Shown here piece after piece: positions 13,893-51,517 of a DNA stretch of 64,000 bases. The translations under genes and the position numbers were made by a program. The stretch is from an uncultured Campylobacterales bacterium (GTDB lineage Bacteria > Campylobacterota > Campylobacteria > Campylobacterales > CACVAW01): positions 8,726 through 72,725 of the forward strand of contig CACVAW010000010.1 in assembly GCA_902727925.1 (NCBI GenBank), in the 5' to 3' direction. The notes below the pieces were generated by a model that made no database searches, was not told the origin of the DNA, and saw only the letters and a program-made list of their open reading frames with translations. Numbering within the stretch: the stretch's first letter is position 1; each line of letters opens with the position of its first letter.

Positions 13893-15203
13893 TTGGACAT
13901 TGATATTGATCAAGTACTTTTAAAATTAAAGACAAGTTTAACAAATGAAATATATTCAAAATATATTCAAAATCTCAAATTCAAAAAAAATACTTCTAAT
14001 GAAAATAACTTATATTTCATAGCTCCAAACAAAATAATTGCTAACTGGATACAAACGAAATATTCTGATAAGATATCAAATGCTTATGAAACTTTATATA
14101 ATCAAAAAGTAACTGTACATATTCAAACAAAAGATACTAAAACATCAAAAAACAATAGCAAGCTTTTAATCAAAAAAGATAATAATAACAGTATTTTAAA
14201 TCCTACTTATACCTTTGAAAGTTTTGTAGTAGGAAGTTCAAATGAGTTTGCTTATAACGCTGCACTTGCTGTTGCTAAACATATTGGAACTGCTTATAAT
14301 CCTATGTTTATCTATGGTCCTACAGGACTTGGAAAAACACATTTAATTCATTCTATTGGAAATTATGCTCAAGAGAGAAATAAAAATGTAATGTATATTA
14401 CTAGTGAACAGTTTATGAATGATTTTTTCTATAATATACAAAACAAGTCTATGAATAATTTTAGAAGCAAATATAGAAATTGCGATATTTTACTTATTGA
14501 TGATATACAGTTTTTTTCAAATAAAGAAAAAATACAAGAAGAATTTTTTCATACATTTAACGAACTATATTCAAATAATAAACAAATCATTTTAACATCT
14601 GACAAACCTCCTAAAATGATAAAAGGACTTGAAGAGAGATTAAAGTCAAGATTTGAATGGGGTCTAATTGCTGATATATCTATACCTGAACTTGAAACCA
14701 AAATAGCAATCATAAAGAAAAAATGCGAAATTGATAAAATCAATCTAAATAATGAAGTAATAAACTATATAGCTGCAAATATGGGAGACAATATCCGTGA
14801 AATAGAAAGCGCAATAATTAATCTAAACGCATATGCAAATCTAATGAAACAAAACATCACACTTGAATTTGCAAAAAATGTAATAAAAGATCAAATAAAA
14901 GAAAAAAGAGACCATATTTCCATAGAAGATATAATCAAAACAGTATCAAGAACACTAAACCTAAAACCAAATGAAATCAAATCAAAATCAAGAAATAAAA
15001 ATATAGTTCAAGCAAGACGTATAGTAATATATCTTTCACGTGAACTTACTCCAAATTCTATGCCTACAATTGCATCATTTTTTAGTATGAAAGATCATAC
15101 TTCAATATCAAAAAATATGAAAAAAATTTCAAGTCTATTAATAGAAGATGAACTCTTTAAATTAACAGTCGAAGAAATTAAAAATAAAATATTAAGTGAC
15201 TAA
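13893..15203 (+). CDS. dnaA: Chromosomal replication initiator protein DnaA
   Basis: 436 aa with the AAA+ Walker A GPTGLGKTHL, Walker B LLIDDIQF, and a C-terminal DNA-binding domain (VQARRIVIYLSRELT...SFFSMKDHTSI). It starts at a TTG preceded by AAAGGAA. Confidence 0.95.
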   Translation: MDIDIDQVLLKLKTSLTNEIYSKYIQNLKFKKNTSNENNLYFIAPNKIIANWIQTKYSDKISNAYETLYNQKVTVHIQTKDTKTSKNNSKLLIKKDNNNSILNPTYTFESFVVGSSNEFAYNAALAVAKHIGTAYNPMFIYGPTGLGKTHLIHSIGNYAQERNKNVMYITSEQFMNDFFYNIQNKSMNNFRSKYRNCDILLIDDIQFFSNKEKIQEEFFHTFNELYSNNKQIILTSDKPPKMIKGLEERLKSRFEWGLIADISIPELETKIAIIKKKCEIDKINLNNEVINYIAANMGDNIREIESAIINLNAYANLMKQNITLEFAKNVIKDQIKEKRDHISIEDIIKTVSRTLNLKPNEIKSKSRNKNIVQARRIVIYLSRELTPNSMPTIASFFSMKDHTSISKNMKKISSLLIEDELFKLTVEEIKNKILSD

Positions 15204-15205
15204 TA

Positions 15206-15231
15206 GTGAACAAAGATTTTTTTTTGTTCAC
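15206..15231 (+). terminator. Hairpin directly after dnaA
   Basis: gtgaacaaa (15206-15214) and tttgttcac (15223-15231) form a 9-bp stem around a T-rich loop. Confidence 0.35.
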
Positions 15232-15266
15232 ATCTAAAGATACCTTATCTAAAAGCTTATTCTAAC

Positions 15267-15275
15267 TTATTCACA
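15267..15275 (+). other. DnaA box in the dnaA-dnaN intergenic region (candidate oriC part 2)
   Basis: A perfect TTATTCACA. It is followed by an AT-rich stretch containing the direct 9-mer repeat CTACAAACA at 15301-15309 and 15327-15335. Confidence 0.4.
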
Positions 15276-15426
15276 AATTCACTGACCTATACTTTTACTA
15301 CTACAAACAAATACATTAATTATAGACTACAAACAGACAAATATAAGTTATACTTTACTTTTGGTATAACAAGCATTTTTTAAGTATAATAATCTTTTGA
15401 TTTGCATATAAATTTTAGGAGTTTAA

Positions 15427-18832
<3,406 letters not shown>

Positions 18833-41979: not shown

Positions 41980-42284
41980 TTTCCCCCAAAACCAGGTATC
42001 CCACCACCCATCATAGACATAAGACCTGACTTTTTATTTTCTTCACATAGTTTTTGAGCTTCATTAATTGCGCTTATTAGTAATATTTCAAGAGAAGCTT
42101 TATCTTCAAGTAAGCTATCATCAATATTTAGGTCAACTAGTTCACCATTTCCATTTATACTAGCATTTACCATTCCAGCTCCACTTGAGGCTGTGAACTT
42201 TTTATTTGCTAATTCTTCTTTGAAACTTTCGGCATTTTTTTCTATATCTTTAAACATATCGCCCATCTGAGAAAAATCAAACAT
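41976..42284 (-). CDS. YbaB/EbfC family nucleoid-associated protein
   Basis: MFDFSQMGDMFKDIEK...FTASSGAGMVNASINGNGELVDLNIDDSLL...EILLISAINEA. The ATG at 42284 is preceded by AAAGGG. Confidence 0.85.
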   Translation of the reverse strand: MFDFSQMGDMFKDIEKNAESFKEELANKKFTASSGAGMVNASINGNGELVDLNIDDSLLEDKASLEILLISAINEAQKLCEENKKSGLMSMMGGGIPGFGGK

Positions 42285-42362
42285 TAATTGCCCTTTATTT
42301 TTAAAGCGCAATTATATAAAATTACACTTATAGCAATACTAAACAAAAATAAGGTGAAAACT

Positions 42363-43073
42363 ATGATCATCATACCAGCAAGACTAGGTTCAACTAGATT
42401 TCCTAAAAAAATATTAGCAAAAATAGGCAAATACCCTATGGTTGTAGCAACTGCTAAAAGAGTTGAAAGTGTAGATGATGTGATAGTTGCTACAGATAGT
42501 GAGGAAGTAAAACAGATATGTGCGCAATATGGAGTTAGAGCTGAACTCACAAGCGTGCATCATCAAAGTGGGACTGATAGAATAAATGAAGTAGTCCAAT
42601 CTCTTGGGATTGATGACAACGAACTTGTGATTAATGTTCAAGCTGATGAACCTTTTATTGAGCCAGAGATTTTAAAAGAGCTAATAACAAAGCTTAAAAA
42701 CTTGCAAAAACAAAAACGAGACTTCATAATGGCAAGTTGTGCAAAGTCTATATCCAAAGATGAGGCAAAAGACCCAAATCTTGTTAAAGTGATACTTGAT
42801 AAAAATAATGACGCGATATATTTTTCTAGATCTATAATTCCCTATGATAGAGATAGCCTATATAATAAATACTTGGGTCATATAGGTATTTACGGATTTG
42901 ATGCAAAAAGCTTAAATAAGTTTTGTAGTATGCAAGGAACTCTAGAACATATAGAAAAACTAGAACAACTTAGAGTATTGGAAAATGCTCAAAAAATAGC
43001 GATTATAGAAGTTAAAACAAAGAGTTTTGGAATAGATACGCTAGCAGATTTACAAAAGGCTTTATTATTATAA
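42363..43073 (+). CDS. kdsB: 3-deoxy-manno-octulosonate cytidylyltransferase
   Basis: MIIIPARLGSTRFPKKIL...VVATD...SGTDR...VNVQADEP. The ATG at 42363 is preceded by AAGGTGA. The upstream extension in the track is rejected. Confidence 0.92.
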   Translation: MIIIPARLGSTRFPKKILAKIGKYPMVVATAKRVESVDDVIVATDSEEVKQICAQYGVRAELTSVHHQSGTDRINEVVQSLGIDDNELVINVQADEPFIEPEILKELITKLKNLQKQKRDFIMASCAKSISKDEAKDPNLVKVILDKNNDAIYFSRSIIPYDRDSLYNKYLGHIGIYGFDAKSLNKFCSMQGTLEHIEKLEQLRVLENAQKIAIIEVKTKSFGIDTLADLQKALLL

Positions 43074-43076
43074 AAT

Positions 43077-43084
43077 TGTATAAT
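43077..43084 (+). promoter_or_regulatory. Candidate extended -10 box (TGTATAAT, followed by CAC) for the ubiE-nuo block
   Basis: tgtataatcac lies 4 nt after the kdsB stop and 28 nt before the ubiE GTG. Confidence 0.4.
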
Positions 43085-43111
43085 CACACTAAATAAACTT
43101 TAAGGAAAAAA

Positions 43112-43819
43112 GTGTCAAAACAGCAAAGTATTGTATCAATGTTTGATAGTATATCTGGGACCTATGATAAGGTTAATAGAATACTTAGTTTTGGAATAGA
43201 TAAAAGCTGGAGAAAAAAAGCTTGTAAAAAAGCTTTTGAATTAACTAACAAAAACAGATACGATATATTAGATATGGCTTGTGGTACAGGTGATATGATA
43301 GATTTTTGGCGTAAAAGTGCATCAAAACAAAACAAAAATATCTCTTCAATCATAGGTATAGATCCCTCTTTAGGTATGCTTGAAATTGCACAAAAGAAGT
43401 TTCCAAAAACAGAGTTTAAAAACAATAATGCAACAGAGTTTGATGATAAAAACAAAGATATAATAAGTATTTCTTATGGCCTACGAAATGTAGTTCAACG
43501 CCAAGCTGCTTTAAAACATTTTTATAACGCACTTAATGAGGACGGAGTTTTAGTAATACTAGAATTCATGAAAATGGACAAAAAATCTTTAATGTCTCAT
43601 ATAAGAGGCTTGTATATGAATAAGATTCTTCCTTTTATTGGAGGAGTTATTAGTATGAACTTTAAAGCTTATAAATATTTGCCAAACAGTATAGGTGACT
43701 TTATAACAACTAATGAACTAAAAGAAGAGTTAGAAAAAGCAGGATTTAAGATAGTATTTACGAAGGGTTACTCAGGAGACATATCAACTCTTGTAATAGC
43801 TCAAAAGAATGAGAGGTAA
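43112..43819 (+). CDS. ubiE: Demethylmenaquinone/ubiquinone C-methyltransferase
   Basis: 235 aa with MFDSISGTYDKVNRILSFGIDKSWRKK and the SAM motif ILDMACGTGD. GTG start. Confidence 0.87.
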   Translation: MSKQQSIVSMFDSISGTYDKVNRILSFGIDKSWRKKACKKAFELTNKNRYDILDMACGTGDMIDFWRKSASKQNKNISSIIGIDPSLGMLEIAQKKFPKTEFKNNNATEFDDKNKDIISISYGLRNVVQRQAALKHFYNALNEDGVLVILEFMKMDKKSLMSHIRGLYMNKILPFIGGVISMNFKAYKYLPNSIGDFITTNELKEELEKAGFKIVFTKGYSGDISTLVIAQKNER

Positions 43820-43823
43820 TTAA

Positions 43824-44210
43824 ATGGCAGAGCAATTAGCGCATCCTTATGTAGGTGTATTTATAATGCTTTTTTTAAGTGCAGGAATATTTTTTGGTAT
43901 TACGCTACTTGTGAGTTTTATTAGTAGTAAGCTTTCAAATAGAGATAATGATAAACTAAAACAAAGTATGTATGAATGTGGGCCAACGCCCAATAAACAA
44001 CCAAACAGAATATCTTCACATTTTTATAAGTTTGCTTTACTGTTTATACTTTTTGATGTAGAGATTATATTCATGTATCCATGGGCGCTTAACTTTAAGA
44101 CTTTGGGAATATTTGGATTTGTAGAAATGATTATGTTTATAAGCTTGCTTTCAATAGGTTTTATTTACGCTTGGAAAAAAGGAGCCTTAAAATGGCATGG
44201 CATAAAGTAG
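43824..44210 (+). CDS. nuoA: NADH-quinone oxidoreductase subunit A
   Basis: 128 aa with 3 TM helices, YECGP, and [11 protein letters not shown]. Confidence 0.9.
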
Positions 44211-44704
44211 ATTATACAAAAGATAATGGTCTTCCAATACTTCTTACTACAGCTGATAAGATAGTTAGTTGGGGACGAAGTAACTCTATATGGCCACTTA
44301 CTTATGGACTTGCTTGTTGTGCTATTGAGATGATGGCTACGGGAGCCAGTAGATACGATCTTGATAGGTTTGGAGCAGGTGTATTTAGGGCGAGCCCTAG
44401 ACAATCAGATGTAATGATAATAGCAGGAACACTAACCAAAAAACATGCAGAATTTACAAAAAGAATATATGACCAGATGAGTGAACCCAAATGGGTTATA
44501 AGTATGGGAAGCTGTGCAAATACAGGTGGAGAGTATAATACCTATAGCGTAGTCCAAGGAGTTGACAGAATAATACCTGTGGATATATACCTACCAGGTT
44601 GCGCACCAAGACCTGAAACTCTTCAATACGCAATAATGATGCTCCAAAAAAAGATTAGAAAAGAGAGTATTTTTAGAAAGCAAAGACAAAGAAGGTTAGT
44701 ATGA
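44192..44704 (+). CDS. nuoB: NADH-quinone oxidoreductase subunit B
   Basis: [34 protein letters not shown] (N2 cluster cysteines). The ATG at 44192 has AAGGAG 7 nt upstream, so the track start at 44171 is less likely. Confidence 0.93.
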
Positions 44705-45507
44705 GAACGTATAAGCCTAAGAAAAATGTACAACACAAAGCTTATCATACAGATAGATTTTATGTAGCTCCAACATTAGCAAAAATAGATCCATCAACTG
44801 ATGAGGTATTTTCAAAAGACTTAAAATTAGTAGAAAAAAACTTCAGCGTAGAAGAGGCATATATACAAAACAACCATTTAGTTATCTATGTAAAACCTAC
44901 AGATATATATAAAGTACTTGAACTCTTAAAAGACAGTTGTAAATATCAAATGCTTATAGAACTAAGTGCTATTGATTTTGTTGAGCAGAGTAATGAGTTT
45001 GAAATATTTTATCAACTTCTTTCACTCACAAAGAAAAAACGAATCAGACTAAAAACAAAAATAAGTGCAGATGATAAAAAAATCAAAAGTGTTTGTGACT
45101 TATACAAAAGTGCAAATTGGGCTGAAAGAGAAGCTTATGATATGTTTGGTATCAAGTTTGTTTCTCATCCAAACTTAAAAAGAATACTTATGCCTGATGA
45201 TTGGTATGATCATCCACTTCTTAAGACCTATCCAGTTGAGGGTGATGAGAGTGCTTCATGGTACGAAGTAGATAAGATATACGGCAAAGAATATAGGGAT
45301 ATTGTAGGTCCAGAGCTTAGAGACCCAGCGTATATAGATAGACTTGATAGTAAAAGATTTATAAAAATAAAACACGAAGTTCCTTATGGCGCAGAAATAA
45401 GCGAAACTCCTACAAACATGATGAGTGAATATCAAGAAGAAAAAGGGGTGTTTTTGGTTCGTAAGCTTAGACGTGCAAAATCAAAAATACTCAAAAAGAG
45501 AAGGTAA
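44701..45507 (+). CDS. nuoC: NADH-quinone oxidoreductase subunit C
   Basis: 268 aa with [40 protein letters not shown]. It has an ATGA overlap with nuoB. Confidence 0.9.
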
Positions 45508-45514
45508 TACAGAT

Positions 45515-46537
45515 ATGTTCCTAGAGATTAAAAACATCGGGATAATCAAAGAAGCTAATATAAAAATAGATGGACTAACTGTAATAGCTGGAGAAAATGA
45601 TACTGGGAAAAGCACAGTAGGAAAAGTACTTTATAGTTTGATTAAAACAGTTACATTTAGTAGTAATATTGAACCAAAAGACTTACCAATGGGAAATATC
45701 TATCAATATCATTTTGATATGTATACGAAAAAACTATTTAAAAATAAAATATCTAAAAATGGTAGTATAAAGTTTGATTTTGAAGATAATATTTTTGAAC
45801 TTAAAATCAAACAAAATAGATGTATATCATTTGAATATCCACCAAAGTATAAAAATACTAAAGCTAAAATGTTCAAACCACTGTTAATAGATTCTCCTTT
45901 GATATGGAATATGTATGAAACATTAGAAACTATAAATAGTGTAAAAAATCAAGAAAGTATTATGGATAATATTGATTTTAGTATTAGTCAAACTATTCAA
46001 GATTTACATTTCGCTTTATCTGTAAAAATGAAAGACAACTATTCAAATAATTTAAGTTTAAAAATCAACAATATTATAGGTGGTAGTTTTGAACAAGATG
46101 GGTTAGGAAATTTTTCTTTTAATAAAGATGATGACAAAATAGAGCTTATCAATACTTCTATGGGAATTAAATATTTTGGTATATTGCAGGTTTTAGAAAA
46201 CAAAAACCATCTTCATCATGATCAGATATTGATACTAGATGAACCCGAAGTTCATTTACATCCAAAATGGCAGTTAATGCTAGCGGAGGTTATTGTAAAG
46301 TTAGTTAAAAGTGGTGTTAAGATAGTGGTAAACTCCCATAGCCCTTATATGATAGAAGCTTTAGAACTTTTTTCTAAGAGACATGAAGTGAAGTCAAATT
46401 ATTATTTATCTGAAAAAAATGAAAATGGTACATCAAACATTACTTCTCAGGGTGAAGATTTAAATTATATTTATAAAAAATTAGCTCAACCTTTTACTAC
46501 CTTAGAAGAAATGGCTTTAAAAGATTTTAAATGGTAA
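45515..46537 (+). CDS. ABC/SMC-like (AAA_15/AAA_21-type) ATPase, soluble, inserted between nuoC and nuoD
   Basis: 340 aa counted from the ATG at 45515, which lies 7 nt after the nuoC stop with an AGAAGG RBS. Walker A is G26-ENDTGKST34. Walker B is QILILDEPEVHLHP. There is an H-loop-like VVNSHSPYMIE. I see no TM segments and no TOPRIM or HNH motifs. Confidence 0.8.
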   Translation: MFLEIKNIGIIKEANIKIDGLTVIAGENDTGKSTVGKVLYSLIKTVTFSSNIEPKDLPMGNIYQYHFDMYTKKLFKNKISKNGSIKFDFEDNIFELKIKQNRCISFEYPPKYKNTKAKMFKPLLIDSPLIWNMYETLETINSVKNQESIMDNIDFSISQTIQDLHFALSVKMKDNYSNNLSLKINNIIGGSFEQDGLGNFSFNKDDDKIELINTSMGIKYFGILQVLENKNHLHHDQILILDEPEVHLHPKWQLMLAEVIVKLVKSGVKIVVNSHSPYMIEALELFSKRHEVKSNYYLSEKNENGTSNITSQGEDLNYIYKKLAQPFTTLEEMALKDFKW

Positions 46538-47088
46538 AGGATATTGAATCTTTTTTAAGAAAAGACTTTAAGTTTAGTGAACTAAAAATAGTAAGTGATG
46601 ATATATGTATCAATAATTCGAATGAGTATTTAGATATAGACTCCGAAGAAGGTGGACTAATAAGTAAACTTTATAAAAAAGGTGAAGATAGACTTTTTAA
46701 AAGTGATAAAATGTCATCTTGTGATACTATATTATTTAATATTAAGCATGACCATATGGTTTTTATAGAGTTTAAGGATATGAATAAAGTTGATTCAAAA
46801 GAAAAGTTAAAAGAATGGAATGAAAAACATTACAAATCAATACTTGTAAAAATATCTGATTCAATATTGATGTTTAGTTATATTTTAAATAAAAAATATA
46901 AGATTAGCTATGATAGTTTTATGAATATAAAAAAGAGTTTTATATATGTCTATAAAACAGATGTATATAAAGATAAAATACATGAACATTTACACAACAA
47001 ATTTTCAAAATATAAATTTTTATTTCAAAATACTTTATTCGCTGATGTAAATGAATTTCAAGATTTTTTAAAAACAAACAAACTATAG
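46531..47088 (+). CDS. Hypothetical protein, candidate PD-(D/E)xK-fold partner of the upstream ATPase
   Basis: 185 aa. Its ATG overlaps the ATPase stop (ATGGTAA). SSC-D65-TILFNIKHDHMVFI-E80-F-K82-D fits D...(D/E)xK on two predicted beta strands. It is extremely AT-rich and I recognise no family. Confidence 0.55.
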   Translation: MVKDIESFLRKDFKFSELKIVSDDICINNSNEYLDIDSEEGGLISKLYKKGEDRLFKSDKMSSCDTILFNIKHDHMVFIEFKDMNKVDSKEKLKEWNEKHYKSILVKISDSILMFSYILNKKYKISYDSFMNIKKSFIYVYKTDVYKDKIHEHLHNKFSKYKFLFQNTLFADVNEFQDFLKTNKL

Positions 47089-47097
47089 GTATAGAAT

Positions 47098-48330
47098 ATG
47101 CAAAGACAACAACCAAATATATTAAAACCTCATTTTGAAAATGTGAATTTCCAAAGAGATGGAAATAATATGATACTTAATCTTGGTCCTCAACACCCAT
47201 CAGCTCACGGTCAGCTTAGACTTGTACTTGAGCTTGACGGTGAAAAGGTAGTAAAATCTACACCAATGGTAGGGTACCTTCACCGTGGTATGGAAAAGAT
47301 GGCTGAAAATATTCCCTATAATAAATTTTTGCCCACAACTGATAGGATGGATTATATTGCAGCTGCATCAAACAACTACGCGTTTGCAGCTTCAGTTGAA
47401 AGTCTCATTGGAGTAGAAGTTCCACGCCGAGCTAAAGTCATAAGAACTATGATACTTGAGATTAACCGTCTTAATTCACATCTGTTTTGGCTTGCTACGC
47501 ATGCACTTGATGTAGGAGCTATGAGTGTATTTTTGTATTGTTTTAGAGAGCGTGAATTTGCACTTGATTTGATCGAAAGCTATTGTGGAGCTAGGCTTAC
47601 ACATAGTGCAATGAGAATAGGGGGAGTTCCACTTGATCTTCCTATAGGATGGCTAACAAGTTTAGAAAAATATTGTGATCATTTAAGTACTGAGATAGAT
47701 AACCTTGAGGGGCTTCTTAATGAAAACAGAATTTGGAAGATGAGGCTTGAGGGTGTGGGTGTGATGAGTGCAGAAGAGGCTATAAGCTCAGGTTGTACCG
47801 GTCCAAGTCTAAGAGGTAGTGGTGTTGAGTATGATATAAGAAAAGAAGAGCCTTATGAATTATATGATGAGCTTGAATTTGATATTCCAGTAAGTCAGCG
47901 AGGTGATGCTTATGGAAGATATCAAGTATATATGAAAGAGATGAGAGAAAGCATCAAGATACTCAAACAGCTAATTCCTAAGTACGCAGGAACTTCAACT
48001 ATCATAATGGCAGAATCACCTAAATATATATCAGCTCCTAAAGAGCAGATAATGACACAAAACTACTCACTCATGCAACACTTTGTTCTTGTAACTCAAG
48101 GTATGAGACCTCCAATAGGTGAGAGCTATGTACCTACAGAATCACCAAAAGGTGAACTTGGATTTTATATTAATTCTCAAGGTGAAGCACATCCTTACAG
48201 ACTAAAAGTAAGAGGTCCAAGCTTTTGGCATACTTCAATATTTGAAAATTTGTTTGTAGGTGAATATCTCGCAGATGTGATAACACTAATAGGAAATTTT
48301 AATATAGTTCTTGGCGAAGTAGATAGATAA
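47098..48330 (+). CDS. nuoD: NADH-quinone oxidoreductase subunit D
   Basis: 410 aa with [24 protein letters not shown], and the C-terminal GEVDR. Confidence 0.95.
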
Positions 48331-48339
48331 AGGAATATT

Positions 48340-49056
48340 ATGGAAAAAATTAAAGAAGTATTTTTAAACTCGATAGATAGTATAAAAGAGAATAGAATAA
48401 ATCTGTTTAGAGGTCTTTTAGTACCAATGCTTATTATGGTAGGTATAAGTGTATATTTTCCAATATTAATTAAAAGTTTAGACATGAATATGATAATTAT
48501 TTTATCAATTGTTTATCCTATATTCTATTTTATTTTATATGTAGTTTGTTTTATACAAATAAGTAGAATAGTTTTACTAAATGAAGAAAAATCTTTTTTA
48601 AGTTTTCTTAGTTGGGGTAAAAAAGAATTTATGTTTGTATTTTATGCTGGGTTAATTACATTTGCAAGTGCTCTTATAGTAGGTATTTCGTTACCATTCT
48701 TTAATTTTGAGCAGATATTTTTATCTGTAATACCTTTGTCTGTAATATTTTTAGTATTGTATACTATTCCAAGGTTTATTCTTTTGTTTCCAGCTACCGC
48801 AGTAGAAAAATATATATCATTAAAAGAGTCTTGGAATCTTACAGAGGATAATAAATTTTTAATGATTTTTACTTGTTGGCTTTTACCTATATTTTTTACA
48901 GTTCCAATTTTTTTATTATTATCTATCTTGCCTCTTGTACTTTTGCAAACATTATCAGTTCTTACGATGATAGCAACTGTGTCATTTTCAGCAGAGGCGT
49001 ATAAATTAATAATAGTTCAAAACTTAGACAGCTTAGTAGAAAAGGAAGTCAAATGA
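48340..49056 (+). CDS. Polytopic membrane protein of unknown function
   Basis: 238 aa with about 6 TM helices, lying 9 nt after nuoD with an AAAGGAA RBS. I see no NuoH/J/K-type motifs. Confidence 0.5.
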
Positions 49057-49835
49057 CTATACTATCAGGACCTTGTGTAATAGAGAGTAAAGAAATAGTT
49101 TACGAGATAGCTTCAAAACTACAATATTTTCAAGAAAATAAAGATATTGACTTTTATTTCAAAGCTAGTTTTGACAAAGCAAATAGAACTAGTCTTTCAA
49201 GCTTTCGTGGACCAGGACTTGAAGAGGGTTTAAGGATACTTGAAGAGGTAAAAAAAGAGTTTGGTTACAAAATAGTGACTGATATTCACGAGCCATCTCA
49301 AGCAAAGCCTGTAGGCGAGGTTGTTGATATGATTCAAATACCTGCATTTTTATCTAGACAAACAGACTTACTTGTAGCAGCTGCGAAAACAGATGCTTAT
49401 GTGAATATCAAAAAAGCTCAATTCTTGAGTGGTTCTGATATGCAGTATTCTGTAGCAAAGGTTATGAATACTAGAGGTTATGAAACAATCACTTATGAAA
49501 ATGCCAAAAAAGCAAAAGTATTCTTGTGTGAGCGTGGAAATATCTTTGGGTATGGCAACTTTGTAGTAGATATGAGAAACTTGATTATTATGAGAGAGTT
49601 TGCTCCTGTGATATTTGACGCAACACATTCAGTACAGATGCCAGGAGGTGCAGGTGGTAAGAGTGGTGGAAACAAAGAATATGTAGCACCACTAACACGA
49701 GCAGCAAACGCTATAGGTGTAGATGGGTTTTTCTTTGAGACTCATTGTGATCCTGATAAAGCTCTTTGTGATGGACCGAACATGCTTCAAGTAGATGACT
49801 TAATAAAATTAATTAAAGAAATTAAAGGCGAATAA
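49053..49835 (+). CDS. kdsA: 2-dehydro-3-deoxyphosphooctonate aldolase (KDO-8-P synthase)
   Basis: 260 aa with [39 protein letters not shown]. Confidence 0.92.
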
Positions 49836-50303
49836 ATGAAAAGAATAGAAGGAAAATTATCTCTAAACGGAGATGAGAAGATAGCAATAGTAAGTGGTAG
49901 ATTTAATCATATTATTACTGATAGATTAGTTGAGGGTGCAAGAGATGCCTTCATAAGACAAGGTGGAAATGAAGACAATCTTGACCTTGTGATGGTTCCA
50001 GGTGCATTTGAAATACCATTTATCTTAGACAAGATGTTATCTCTCAAAAAATATGATGGAATATGTTGTGTAGGAGCTGTGATTCGTGGAAGTACACCAC
50101 ACTTTGATTATGTATCAGCAGAAGCAACTAAAGGAATAGCAACTATGGGGCTTAAGTATCACACACCTGTAAGCTTTGGAGTGCTAACAACAAACACTAT
50201 AGAGCAAGCAATCGAGCGTGCAGGAAGCAAAGCTGGTAACCTTGGGTTTAATTATATGAGTTCTTTAATTGAGATGTTAGACCTTTATAAAAAGTTTGAT
50301 TAA
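49836..50303 (+). CDS. ribH: 6,7-dimethyl-8-ribityllumazine synthase
   Basis: 155 aa with [35 protein letters not shown]. Confidence 0.94.
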
Positions 50304-50689
50304 TGGCTACAAGAAGACATGTGCGTCAAAGTGTAATAAGTATTCTTTACGCTAAAGATATAGGTAATATCGATATAGATGATTTCAAAGATGAAATACT
50401 CGCAGACAATAAAATAAAAAACAAACAGTATGAATTTGCAAATTCACTTCTTGTTGGTATTGATCAAAACATGAAAGATATAGATGACAATATATCTAAA
50501 AATTTGTCAAAAAGAAGTATTGGTGATATTGGTCTTATTGAAAAAGCGATTCTTAGGCTAGGTACTTATGAAATATTATTTGGAGGGACAAATAAAGTTG
50601 TAGTCATCAACGAAGCTATAGAGATAGCAAAAGAGTTGTGTGCTCCAAACTCTCCAAAATTTTTGAACGCTGTATTAGATAAGATTTAA
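50303..50689 (+). CDS. nusB: Transcription antitermination factor NusB
   Basis: 128 aa with RRHVRQSVISILY...VVINEAIEIAKE. The ribH-nusB order is conserved. Confidence 0.9.
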   Translation: MATRRHVRQSVISILYAKDIGNIDIDDFKDEILADNKIKNKQYEFANSLLVGIDQNMKDIDDNISKNLSKRSIGDIGLIEKAILRLGTYEILFGGTNKVVVINEAIEIAKELCAPNSPKFLNAVLDKI

Positions 50690-51357
50690 TGTCAAACTCT
50701 CAAAATCTTCAATTATTAAAAGAACTCTATATCTACAAAAGTATGGGGTTCTCTTATGTTGATAAGTTACAAAGTGTTCAAAATAACACAAAAAACAGAT
50801 CAATTGTAACTTGGGATGATTTAGAAAAAACAGTAAAAAACTGTTTTTTATGTGAACTTTCAAAATCAAGAAAAAACACAGTTTTTGGTAATGGTAATAA
50901 AAATGCCAAAGTTATGTTTATAGGTGAAGCACCTGGTATGGTAGAAGATGAAAGTGGAGATGTCTTTGTTGGTAGGTCAGGGGAGTTATTAACAAAGATG
51001 ATAGAGAATGTTTTAAATATACCAAGAGATGAAGTCTACATTACAAATATGTTGAAATGTAAACCTCCAAGTAATGCAAGTGCTACAAAAAATCAAATAA
51101 ATAGTTGTTCAGACTACTTAACTTCACAGATTAACTTAGTATCTCCAAAACTAATAGTCGCATTAGGTCAGAGCGTATATCAATACCTAAGTAATGATGA
51201 TAGCTCTTTATCTGAGGCTAGAATGAGTATCTCCAAATACAAAGAGATATCAGTAATCACTACATATCATCCTAGCTATCTCTTACGAAACCCAAGTATA
51301 AAAAAACAAGCACACCAAGATTTGCTTAAAATCAAAAGTTTTTTAGATAATTTATAG
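50689..51357 (+). CDS. Family 4 uracil-DNA glycosylase
   Basis: 222 aa with a C..C cluster, GEAPGMVEDESGDVFVGRSG, and HPSYLLRNP. Confidence 0.85.
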   Translation: MSNSQNLQLLKELYIYKSMGFSYVDKLQSVQNNTKNRSIVTWDDLEKTVKNCFLCELSKSRKNTVFGNGNKNAKVMFIGEAPGMVEDESGDVFVGRSGELLTKMIENVLNIPRDEVYITNMLKCKPPSNASATKNQINSCSDYLTSQINLVSPKLIVALGQSVYQYLSNDDSSLSEARMSISKYKEISVITTYHPSYLLRNPSIKKQAHQDLLKIKSFLDNL

Positions 51358-51371
51358 AGGGTAGGGATTGT

Positions 51372-51390
51372 GTTTAGGTAGTACCTAAAC
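51372..51390 (+). terminator. Hairpin after the UDG gene
   Basis: gtttaggta-g-tacctaaac has 9-nt exact inverted arms, giving an effective 8-bp stem with a 3-nt loop. Confidence 0.35.
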
Positions 51391-51517
51391 TTATATGTAA
51401 AGTTAGACTCGCAAATCTTCCTTGTGACATTTAGTCACAAGAGAATTTGCTCCTTGTTTACTCTTTGTTGTCTTTTATAGGTTACAATATACTTATAACA
51501 AAACGACAAACCTCAAA

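Follow-up and report, generated by a model that had tools for sequence, protein, structure and literature searches.

A predicted HEC-02-type ATPase-nuclease cassette lodged between nuoC and nuoD in an uncultured Campylobacterales bacterium

In the preprint by Payne et al., HEC-02 (Hma-embedded candidate 02) is presented as an ABC ATPase encoded together with a NERD-like PD-(D/E)xK protein that carries a (D/E/Q)xK motif, and the system is described there as cutting plaquing by several orders of magnitude in a manner that needs both genes (Payne et al. 2024, 10.1101/2024.01.29.577857). A related pairing of a PD-(D/E)xK nuclease with a P-loop/ABC NTPase makes up PD-T4-4, for which the report by Ragucci et al. 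describes higher-order complexes and names complex formation as a trait found universally among nuclease-NTPase systems (10.1101/2025.07.10.664194). In Septu, PARIS and Gabija, ABC ATPases likewise hold and regulate nucleases, and the ATPase NsnB belongs to the three-gene Menshen system, in which the DUF262 protein NsnA and the NsnC effector are needed as well (Li et al., PMC12065111). Here we analyze a pair of genes for a soluble ABC ATPase (ORF1) and a predicted nuclease (ORF2) that forms a 1.59-kb insert between the respiratory complex I genes nuoC and nuoD, on a stretch of 64,000 nucleotides (hereafter the window) of contig CACVAW010000010.1 from the metagenome-assembled genome of an uncultured Campylobacterales bacterium. 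We propose, with a probability of roughly 0.65, that the insert represents a HEC-02-type immune module made up of a nuclease gene and an NTPase gene, directed against phages or other mobile elements, which was acquired by one lineage and lodged at this junction without a promoter of its own. The two genes and their diagnostic motifs are the following:

45515-46537, plus strand: ORF1, 340 aa, soluble ABC ATPase (AAA_15/AAA_21; HEC-02A-like)
45590-45616, plus strand: ORF1 Walker A/P-loop GENDTGKST, residues 26-34 with K32 (G26, N28, D29, G31, K32 and S33 invariant)
46226-46264, plus strand: ORF1 Walker B and D-loop ILILDEPEVHLHP, residues 238-250 with D242/E243 (L239 and L241-H247 invariant)
46331-46345, plus strand: ORF1 H-loop NSHSP, residues 273-277 with H275 (N273-P277 invariant)
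46531-47088, plus strand: ORF2, 185 aa, predicted PD-(D/E)xK-fold nuclease
46531-46537, plus strand: overlap of the ORF2 start with the ORF1 stop, ATGGTAA, 7 nt in the sequence, read as translational coupling
46723-46776, plus strand: predicted catalytic core of ORF2, D65 (46723-46725) to E80-F81-K82 (46768-46776), invariant in three alignments

As had been proposed in an initial annotation made from the sequence of the window, ORF1 belongs to the soluble ABC ATPases of the SMC/Rad50/OLD type and carries no nuclease domain. Pfam recognizes both AAA_15 (56.6 bits, E = 4.4e-15, cut-off 32.1) and AAA_21 (52.7 bits, E = 8.6e-14, cut-off 27), and the invariance of the ATPase motifs listed above was read from an alignment of 47 homologues. 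Among PADLOC models the best match is HEC-02A (PDLC04214 at 4.1e-28, with residues 3-313 aligned to positions 5-315 of 338; PDLC04213 at 1.8e-26), while PD-T4-4_A reaches 8.7e-28 over parts only of a 460-position model (best stretch residues 132-284), and NsnB (4.9e-24), AriA (3.4e-17), Old (3.8e-13), GajA (~2e-11), PtuA and AbiLi are matched as well. The AlphaFold2 model built from the 47 homologues (pLDDT 91.9, pTM 0.91) finds its best Foldseek match in the PDB in Septu PtuA (8ee4/8eea, 1.5e-11), followed by retron-associated PtuA, Rad50 and SMC/cohesin heads, and it is closest to these heads rather than to the nucleotide-binding domains of transporters; it contains neither a coiled-coil nor a zinc hook. 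Sequence matches in the PDB are to PtuA and AriA, the similarity to PtuA being limited to the C-terminal ATPase lobe. Searches with Pfam and PADLOC detect no Toprim or DUF4435 domain in ORF1 or ORF2, and NCBIfam transporter models score about 20 bits on ORF1 against cut-offs above 200, which sets it apart from transporter-type ABC families. ORF1 also matches a phage protein family to which no function is assigned (phrog_14430, 6e-51). In the public annotation ORF1 is called 'ABC transporter ATP-binding protein' (CAA6803087.1) and ORF2 'Unknown protein' (CAA6803096.1); OLD/SMC-type ABC ATPases are systematically misannotated as ABC transporters, and the same label is found on an ORF1 homologue from a hydrothermal-vent metagenome (P0112).

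The partner protein, ORF2, had initially been placed in no recognized family, and indeed it returns no match in Pfam, PADLOC, NCBIfam or PHROGs. An indexed homologue search retrieved ORF2 alone, whereas phmmer, run exhaustively against 1.84 billion representatives, yielded 16 relatives and a profile search 90, of 108-196 aa (mostly ~170-196) and without a Pfam domain or informative name. In an alignment of 74 family members that are 18-26% identical to ORF2, residues S22, C26, D37, D65, E80, F81 and K82 are invariant, including the D65, E80 and K82 triad that had been singled out from the start as a strand-borne PD-(D/E)xK motif. The AlphaFold2 model (pLDDT 79.3, pTM 0.76) positions D65 at the N-terminus of strand 66-70 and E80 and K82 within strand 75-83, after which come helix 90-123 and then strand 134-142, and this modeled strand-strand-helix-strand arrangement of the motif corresponds to the canonical PD-(D/E)xK core. 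PD-(D/E)xK nucleases, such as MUS81, Hef, Shedu, EcoT38I, Can2 and Card1, figure prominently in the top Foldseek matches of the model. Members of the 74-sequence family weakly match several nuclease profiles, invariably on the motif segment, namely SduA_C (32 members), HEC-02B (19, split 17+1+1 over three models, best E = 2.6e-4), VRR_NUC (9), NERD (PF08378; 8 of 74, best E = 0.0025, gathering threshold not reached) and Cas4 (3). Given the conserved motif, the predicted topology and the consistency of these sub-threshold matches, we very probably deal in ORF2 with a PD-(D/E)xK nuclease whose branch is in no library, although no single significant match stands behind the assignment.

Compared with the characterized systems, the pair in the window agrees with HEC-02 in its architecture and in the lineage of its ATPase: both consist of two genes for an ABC ATPase of ~340 aa and a small PD-(D/E)xK nuclease (a predicted one here), ORF1 matches HEC-02A over its full length, and the genes in the window are adjacent on one strand, ATPase then nuclease, with an overlap of 7 nt. 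The differences concern the second gene and the setting. ORF2 matches no HEC-02B or NERD model and the matches of its family are sub-threshold, so that the putative nuclease appears too divergent for these models; HEC-02 was found inside Hma defense systems, whereas the ORF1/ORF2 family sits in Campylobacterota housekeeping operons; and phage defense is experimental for HEC-02 and predicted for the family described here. PD-T4-4, reportedly the work of Vassallo et al. in 2022, has the same layout and an ATPase that ORF1 matches in part over a longer model, but we reject membership in that system, as PD-T4-4_B is matched neither by ORF2 nor by any of the family members (74/74 unmatched). The description of the pair as uncharacterized and of its architecture as unusual does not hold, since HEC-02, for which phage defense has been shown, has the same layout, as has PD-T4-4.

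More distant likenesses extend over other ATPase-nuclease systems. Of solved structures, those of Septu PtuA-PtuB and retron PtuAB come nearest to the model of ORF1, and the Septu ATPase oligomer binds and regulates a small nuclease; its effector is, however, an HNH protein and PtuA is larger (~450-550 aa), and assignment to Septu was rejected because ORF2 lacks an HNH match and carries a PD-(D/E)xK-type motif instead. Menshen NsnB, PARIS AriA, Gabija GajA and OLD belong to the same OLD-type ABC ATPase clade (AAA_15/AAA_21) as ORF1. Menshen was nonetheless discarded, NsnA and NsnC being missing and the neighbors of the cassette being nuoC and nuoD; Gabija, OLD and PARIS need a TOPRIM nuclease, a domain that, together with DUF4435, neither protein contains; and AbiL is excluded by missing partner genes or domains. 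With respect to Shedu and NERD proteins, SduA_C is the best though weak profile match of the ORF2 family (32/74), it covers the D...ExK segment, and the Shedu nuclease domain is among the top Foldseek matches, but Shedu consists of one protein that has no partner ATPase, and the profile matches stay below the Pfam gathering scores.

The cassette is flanked on either side by complex I genes, from which it is separated by a few nucleotides only:

44701-45507, plus strand: nuoC, 268 aa, upstream host gene (Pfam Complex1_30kDa, E = 4e-42)
45508-45514, plus strand: left junction, the 7-nt spacer ATACAGA from the nuoC stop to the ORF1 ATG
47089-47097, plus strand: right junction, the 9-nt spacer GTATAGAAT from the ORF2 stop to the nuoD ATG
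47098-48330, plus strand: nuoD, 410 aa, downstream host gene (Pfam Complex1_49kDa, E = 2.6e-105)

On the 5' side nuoC follows nuoA (43824-44210) and nuoB (44171-44704), all three identified by Pfam; nuoC is 41-56% identical to nuoC at 37 Campylobacterota loci, nuoD 63-73% identical to Campylobacterota nuoD, and minus-strand open reading frames across the cassette are each shorter than 60 aa. The automatic list of reading frames extends ORF1 back to a GTG at 45425, but the 47 homologues start at the position of the ATG at 45515, where M1, L3, L5, N7 and I8 are conserved, and an AGG at the 3' end of nuoC provides a Shine-Dalgarno-like element. The reading frames, the two spacers, the ATGGTAA overlap and the motifs are thus as first annotated. 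Both junctions are 100% identical in Logan assemblies of two separate runs (ERR3801542 and ERR3801603), and this agreement between independent assemblies shows that the arrangement is real and no assembly chimera.

To place the insert phylogenetically, we carried out a nuoD-based scan of GTDB species-representative genomes, which returned 39 Campylobacterota loci, 37 of them with both nuoC and nuoD. All 37 have the two genes side by side, with -1 to 108 nt between the alignment ends, and no homologue of ORF1 or ORF2 is detected by tblastn in the 6-kb flanks of these loci; the closest nuoD among the scanned representatives is only 73% identical, so the comparison is one without a close sister genome. 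Because the pair is missing from 37/37 relatives, the cassette is best described as a lineage-specific insertion into an otherwise contiguous nuoC-nuoD junction, apparently confined to one Campylobacterales lineage, which agrees with the insertion proposed in the initial annotation; unrelated genes amounting to 1.6 kb can evidently come between nuoC and nuoD with no obvious harm to the reading frames on either side. The location in the nuo operon, together with the public name of ORF1, would speak for a complex I accessory or assembly factor or for a transporter-type ABC protein. Yet the pair is conserved at 0/37 related junctions and so is clearly no conserved complex I accessory as judged by its distribution, homologous pairs occur at unrelated loci, and ORF1 belongs to AAA_15/AAA_21 and not ABC_tran, scores far below the NCBIfam cut-offs, has a PtuA/Rad50-like fold and comes with no membrane partner; this alternative is effectively refuted.

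The association of the two genes extends well beyond the window. A same-strand ORF2-family member follows the ATPase in every context examined where the downstream sequence suffices; in loci gathered by scanning viral and metagenome contigs with the ATPase alignment, the two genes are adjacent in 57/57 non-redundant metagenome pairs, overlapping by 8 nt in 37 and by 7 nt in 8. Partners of 206-214 aa (L098, L119, L138, L139 and L154) were considered as a different effector and rejected as such, as they carry the pattern C...DFD...SCDG...FIEFK and are found by the family profile with the HMMER filters off, which makes them divergent ORF2-family members. The dominant site lies between purE and glyQ, where the family is regularly found in many vent Campylobacterota (in BLAST clusters of neighbors, 16 upstream genes are purE and 13 downstream genes glyQ), and further pairs occupy mraY-murD (L005, L106 and L149) and the junction of cvfB with an HI0933-like gene (L091). 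All 36 upstream neighbors share the strand of the pair, 21 of them at a distance of no more than 25 nt; of 27 downstream neighbors 23 share the strand and 20 are no more than 10 nt away, and the stop codon of the partner often overlaps the ATG of the host gene (ATGA). Ten insertion sites were compared for a common boundary motif, attC-like or repeat, and none was found. The nuoC-nuoD site is a one-off case of this family-wide habit of sitting in housekeeping operons, and the habit recasts the observation rather than making the locus more special: its location is unusual as far as nuoC-nuoD is concerned, but not in being a housekeeping operon.

Some of the pairs, a minority next to those in housekeeping operons, are located in accessory or defense regions. 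One adjoins an MmeI-type restriction-modification gene, T5orf172 and PDDEXK_9 (L089), another ArdA and a caspase-like gene (L001), and in a third (L177, 2843-9373) the genes behind a close ATPase homologue and its partner, with starts that overlap, encode in turn an HSP70-like protein of 810 aa, a UvrD-like helicase and a protein of 470 aa without a family, which may represent a larger composite defense locus. A further pair (L175) lies in a region with nucleotidyltransferase-type pairs and a second ATPase pair. A viral-classified IMG/VR contig, one of only two viral-contig matches, encodes a 437-aa ATPase relative and then a 192-aa ORF2-family member (L173, 1862-3756), recognized in the same way as the partners of 206-214 aa; together with the phrog_14430 match of ORF1, this indicates that phages or prophages harbor relatives of the pair. 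Directly after purE at one locus, three pairs stand in tandem (L003, 2757-7523), with ATPases of 392, 356 and 333 aa and partners of 181, 172 and 175 aa, and the third of these pairs contains the closest ATPase relative of ORF1 (54-55% identity).

The cassettes diverge far more than the genes that flank them. Across 13 loci at the glyQ site, mean identity is 88% for glyQ, 56% for the ATPase and 44% for the partner, and cassette divergence does not correlate with that of glyQ (rho = 0.10 for the ATPase and 0.03 for the partner), a test whose power is limited by the narrow range of glyQ identities; the divergences of ATPase and partner, by contrast, co-vary (rho = 0.50, p = 3.5e-6). Individual comparisons reveal a mosaic structure: L116 and L126 share 97.6% of glyQ and 89% of the ATPase while their partners have no full-length similarity, L111 and L161 combine ATPases of 52% identity with partners of 81%, and L090 and L160, at 94.6% for glyQ and 86.6% for purE, fall to 40% in the ATPase and 25% in the partner. 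Such patterns imply that ATPase and nuclease alleles have been swapped independently of each other, with recombination breakpoints inside the cassette. A hypervariable, module-shuffled locus between conserved flanks is typical of immunity and conflict genes, and argues against a housekeeping role.

These data bear on the possibility that the pair serves a lineage-specific function in cellular DNA repair or maintenance, with a Rad50/SbcC-like ATPase acting through a dedicated nuclease. The heads of Rad50 and SMC rank with the best structural matches of ORF1, and regular residence at purE-glyQ in many vent Campylobacterota would suit a cellular task, but the model of ORF1 lacks a coiled-coil and a zinc hook, the pair is missing from 37/37 related nuo loci with no sign of universal presence, members occur in defense islands and on a viral contig, and both the divergence in excess of glyQ, with cassettes at 40-56% identity where glyQ reaches 88-98%, and the independent allele swapping are at odds with such a role, which we consider quite improbable.

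For the behavior of the family in genomes, the closest match is the minimal mobile element, a concept reportedly due to Saunders and Snyder in 2002. In Neisseria, such elements are alternative cassettes without mobility genes that lie between conserved genes, for instance pheS-pheT (MMEpheST), often carry restriction-modification or defense genes, and are thought to be exchanged by transformation followed by recombination in the flanks (PMC1797815). The purE-glyQ site behaves alike; it differs in being found in Campylobacterota rather than Neisseria and in holding alleles of a single ATPase-nuclease family, and exchange by transformation is here a conjecture.

Precise and non-disruptive insertion between conserved genes at several sites, with no transposase, integrase or repeats, is also what could be expected of a free-standing homing-type element, whose nuclease would cut empty intergenic sites and be copied in by repair in the way of phage intron-less homing endonuclease genes. 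Homing elements at one site usually resemble each other, however, whereas the purE-glyQ alleles are extremely divergent and mosaic; members are found in ordinary accessory islands too, and we know of no homing element composed of an ATPase and a PD-(D/E)xK protein, all of which renders this origin very improbable. An alternative is a selfish addiction module resembling toxin-antitoxin systems, in which the ATPase would restrain a nuclease toxin and embedding in an essential operon would secure retention and expression: the genes are tightly packed on one strand between essential genes, the partner stop often overlaps the host ATG, there are no mobility genes or repeats, and PARIS AriA/AriB, whose AriA resembles ORF1, acts like a toxin-antitoxin pair. 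Moreover, the closest relative of ORF2 (P0122, 42% identity) is encoded in a polysaccharide-biosynthesis region (L175, 1-12537) among toxin-antitoxin-like pairs of the nucleotidyltransferase type, present as two copies of a 183-aa reading frame with a 98-aa Polbeta/NTP_transf_2-type nucleotidyltransferase; another AAA_15/21 ATPase, of 347 aa, is encoded in the region too, with a reading frame of 143 aa behind it. On the other hand, toxin-antitoxin behavior is compatible with defense by abortive infection, hypervariability and allele shuffling suggest an external arms race, and HEC-02 as the closest characterized relative confers phage defense, so that an addiction module as such appears unlikely.

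A defense or conflict role, already put forward in the initial annotation, stands as the best reading of the pair, in view of the HEC-02A match, the phage defense conferred by HEC-02 and the presence of some family members in defense regions. In the mechanism that we envisage for such a HEC-02-type module, the cassette would be expressed by read-through of the nuoA-D transcript from the nuo promoter, because the spacers measure only 7 nt and 9 nt. ORF1, in which K32, D242-E243 and H275 are intact, would dimerize or oligomerize on ATP through its ABC heads and bind the small nuclease ORF2, whose co-synthesis the start/stop overlap would ensure, and as sensor and regulator it would hold ORF2 inactive. 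An infection cue, for which candidates would be the ends of foreign DNA or replication intermediates, a protein of the phage or a depletion of nucleotides, would then shift the state of the ATPase and license ORF2 to cut DNA through a metal(Mg)-dependent PD-(D/E)xK site formed by D65, E80, K82 and possibly D37.

Several observations weigh against an immune module of this type. Even at E <= 1, neither the HEC-02B and NERD models nor any other picks up ORF2 itself, and the matches at the level of its family all lie below curated cut-offs, the best at ~1e-4. The main habitat is the fixed housekeeping site between purE and glyQ and not the classical defense island, which would fit a lineage-specific cellular function too, and in the window no other defense genes adjoin the cassette. 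The defense phenotype, finally, is proposed by analogy with HEC-02 and from sequences and models.

Beyond the single locus, we tentatively entertain the possibility that the ORF1/ORF2 family represents a distinct class of operon-hitchhiking immune cassettes, promoterless and free of mobility genes, which would colonize junctions in essential operons (purE-glyQ, mraY-murD, cvfB-HI0933 and nuoC-nuoD) of Campylobacterota that are probably naturally transformable. Such cassettes would be translationally coupled to the host genes and would swap sensor and effector parts in a mosaic manner by recombination in the flanks, and their embedding would be a selected strategy that guarantees expression and makes them hard to lose or silence, rather than a by-product of compact genomes.

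We regard the pair as a divergent variant of a known defense type with an unusual genomic habit, and hence as no categorical surprise, its function in defense being suggested by sequence likeness and analogy. What is new is a nuclease family that is in no library, the habitual embedding in housekeeping operons of vent Campylobacterota and the shuffling of sensor and effector alleles. If the interpretation is correct, the HEC-02/nuclease-NTPase antiphage class would gain a nuclease family unrecognized by Pfam, PADLOC, NCBIfam and PHROGs, and tools of the PADLOC/DefenseFinder type would miss the pair. Defense cassettes of hydrothermal-vent Campylobacterota could then sit in core operons, which would weaken discovery through 'guilt by association' in these organisms, and the family would offer a natural case of allele exchange in the manner of minimal mobile elements, with the sensor and effector halves swapped separately.

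Two supporting arguments of the initial annotation, that the cassette is compositionally foreign and that the nuoC-nuoD junction was duplicated around it, fail. The GC trough as such is real, with values of 0.19-0.31 in 300-nt windows within the cassette versus 0.34-0.41 in the flanks, and ORF2 at 21.1% GC is second-lowest among 63 genes. At third codon positions, however, GC is at a level usual for the genome (z = -0.30 for ORF1 and -0.74 for ORF2), the deficit lying at codon positions 1 and 2; the low GC of the cassette results from proteins rich in F, Y, I, N and K, residues that make up 40-46% of the total compared with 34% genome-wide. In addition, nuoB and nuoD lie at the GC-rich extreme of the genome, the lowest GC of any gene in the window is that of dnaN (19.4%), and dnaA (24.7%) is below ORF1. 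Low GC in the source genome is no mark of foreign origin, and we reject composition as a sign of recent transfer. The genes dnaA, dnaN and gyrB are grouped at 13893-18832, which probably marks a replication-origin region ~30 kb upstream of the cassette.

As for the junctions, their resemblance is at the level of chance: the local alignment score of the two regions was reached in 1883/2000 shuffles, the left junction is matched better by 1/37 other ATG-start genes of the window than by the junction of nuoD, and no direct or inverted repeats bracket the insert. In the related loci nuoC ends in ...AGGTAA or ...AAGTAA a few bases 5' of the nuoD ATG, and the AGGTA...ATG common to both junctions is an ordinary ribosome-binding context. 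A target-site duplication is rejected on these grounds.

With respect to transcription, a scan for terminators inside the cassette found none, and 51 promoter-like sites were counted against 46.6 in shuffles, a chance level that neither proves nor excludes an internal promoter. One sigma-70-like match, TTAAAA-18 nt-TAGAAT, falls within 47068-47097 at the AT-rich 3' end of ORF2, just 5' of nuoD; in principle nuoD could receive a promoter from the insert, but matches of this kind are no more frequent in the region than expected by chance. An Rfam scan of 42000-51500 at E <= 0.1 detected no RNA feature, and ARAGORN detected neither tRNA nor tmRNA genes across all 64 kb of the window, hence no tRNA as a candidate integration site.

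In the source lineage the nuo cluster (region 43824-51357) ends with nuoD. In relatives such as L010, nuoD is followed by same-strand reading frames of 669 and 748 aa, for which tblastn gives no match anywhere in the window, and the operon seems to be broken or rearranged at the 3' end of nuoD. The position after nuoD is taken here by a reading frame for a 238-aa multi-pass membrane protein (48340-49056, 25% GC, without a family match), beyond which lie kdsA, ribH, nusB and a gene for a family-4-type uracil-DNA glycosylase.

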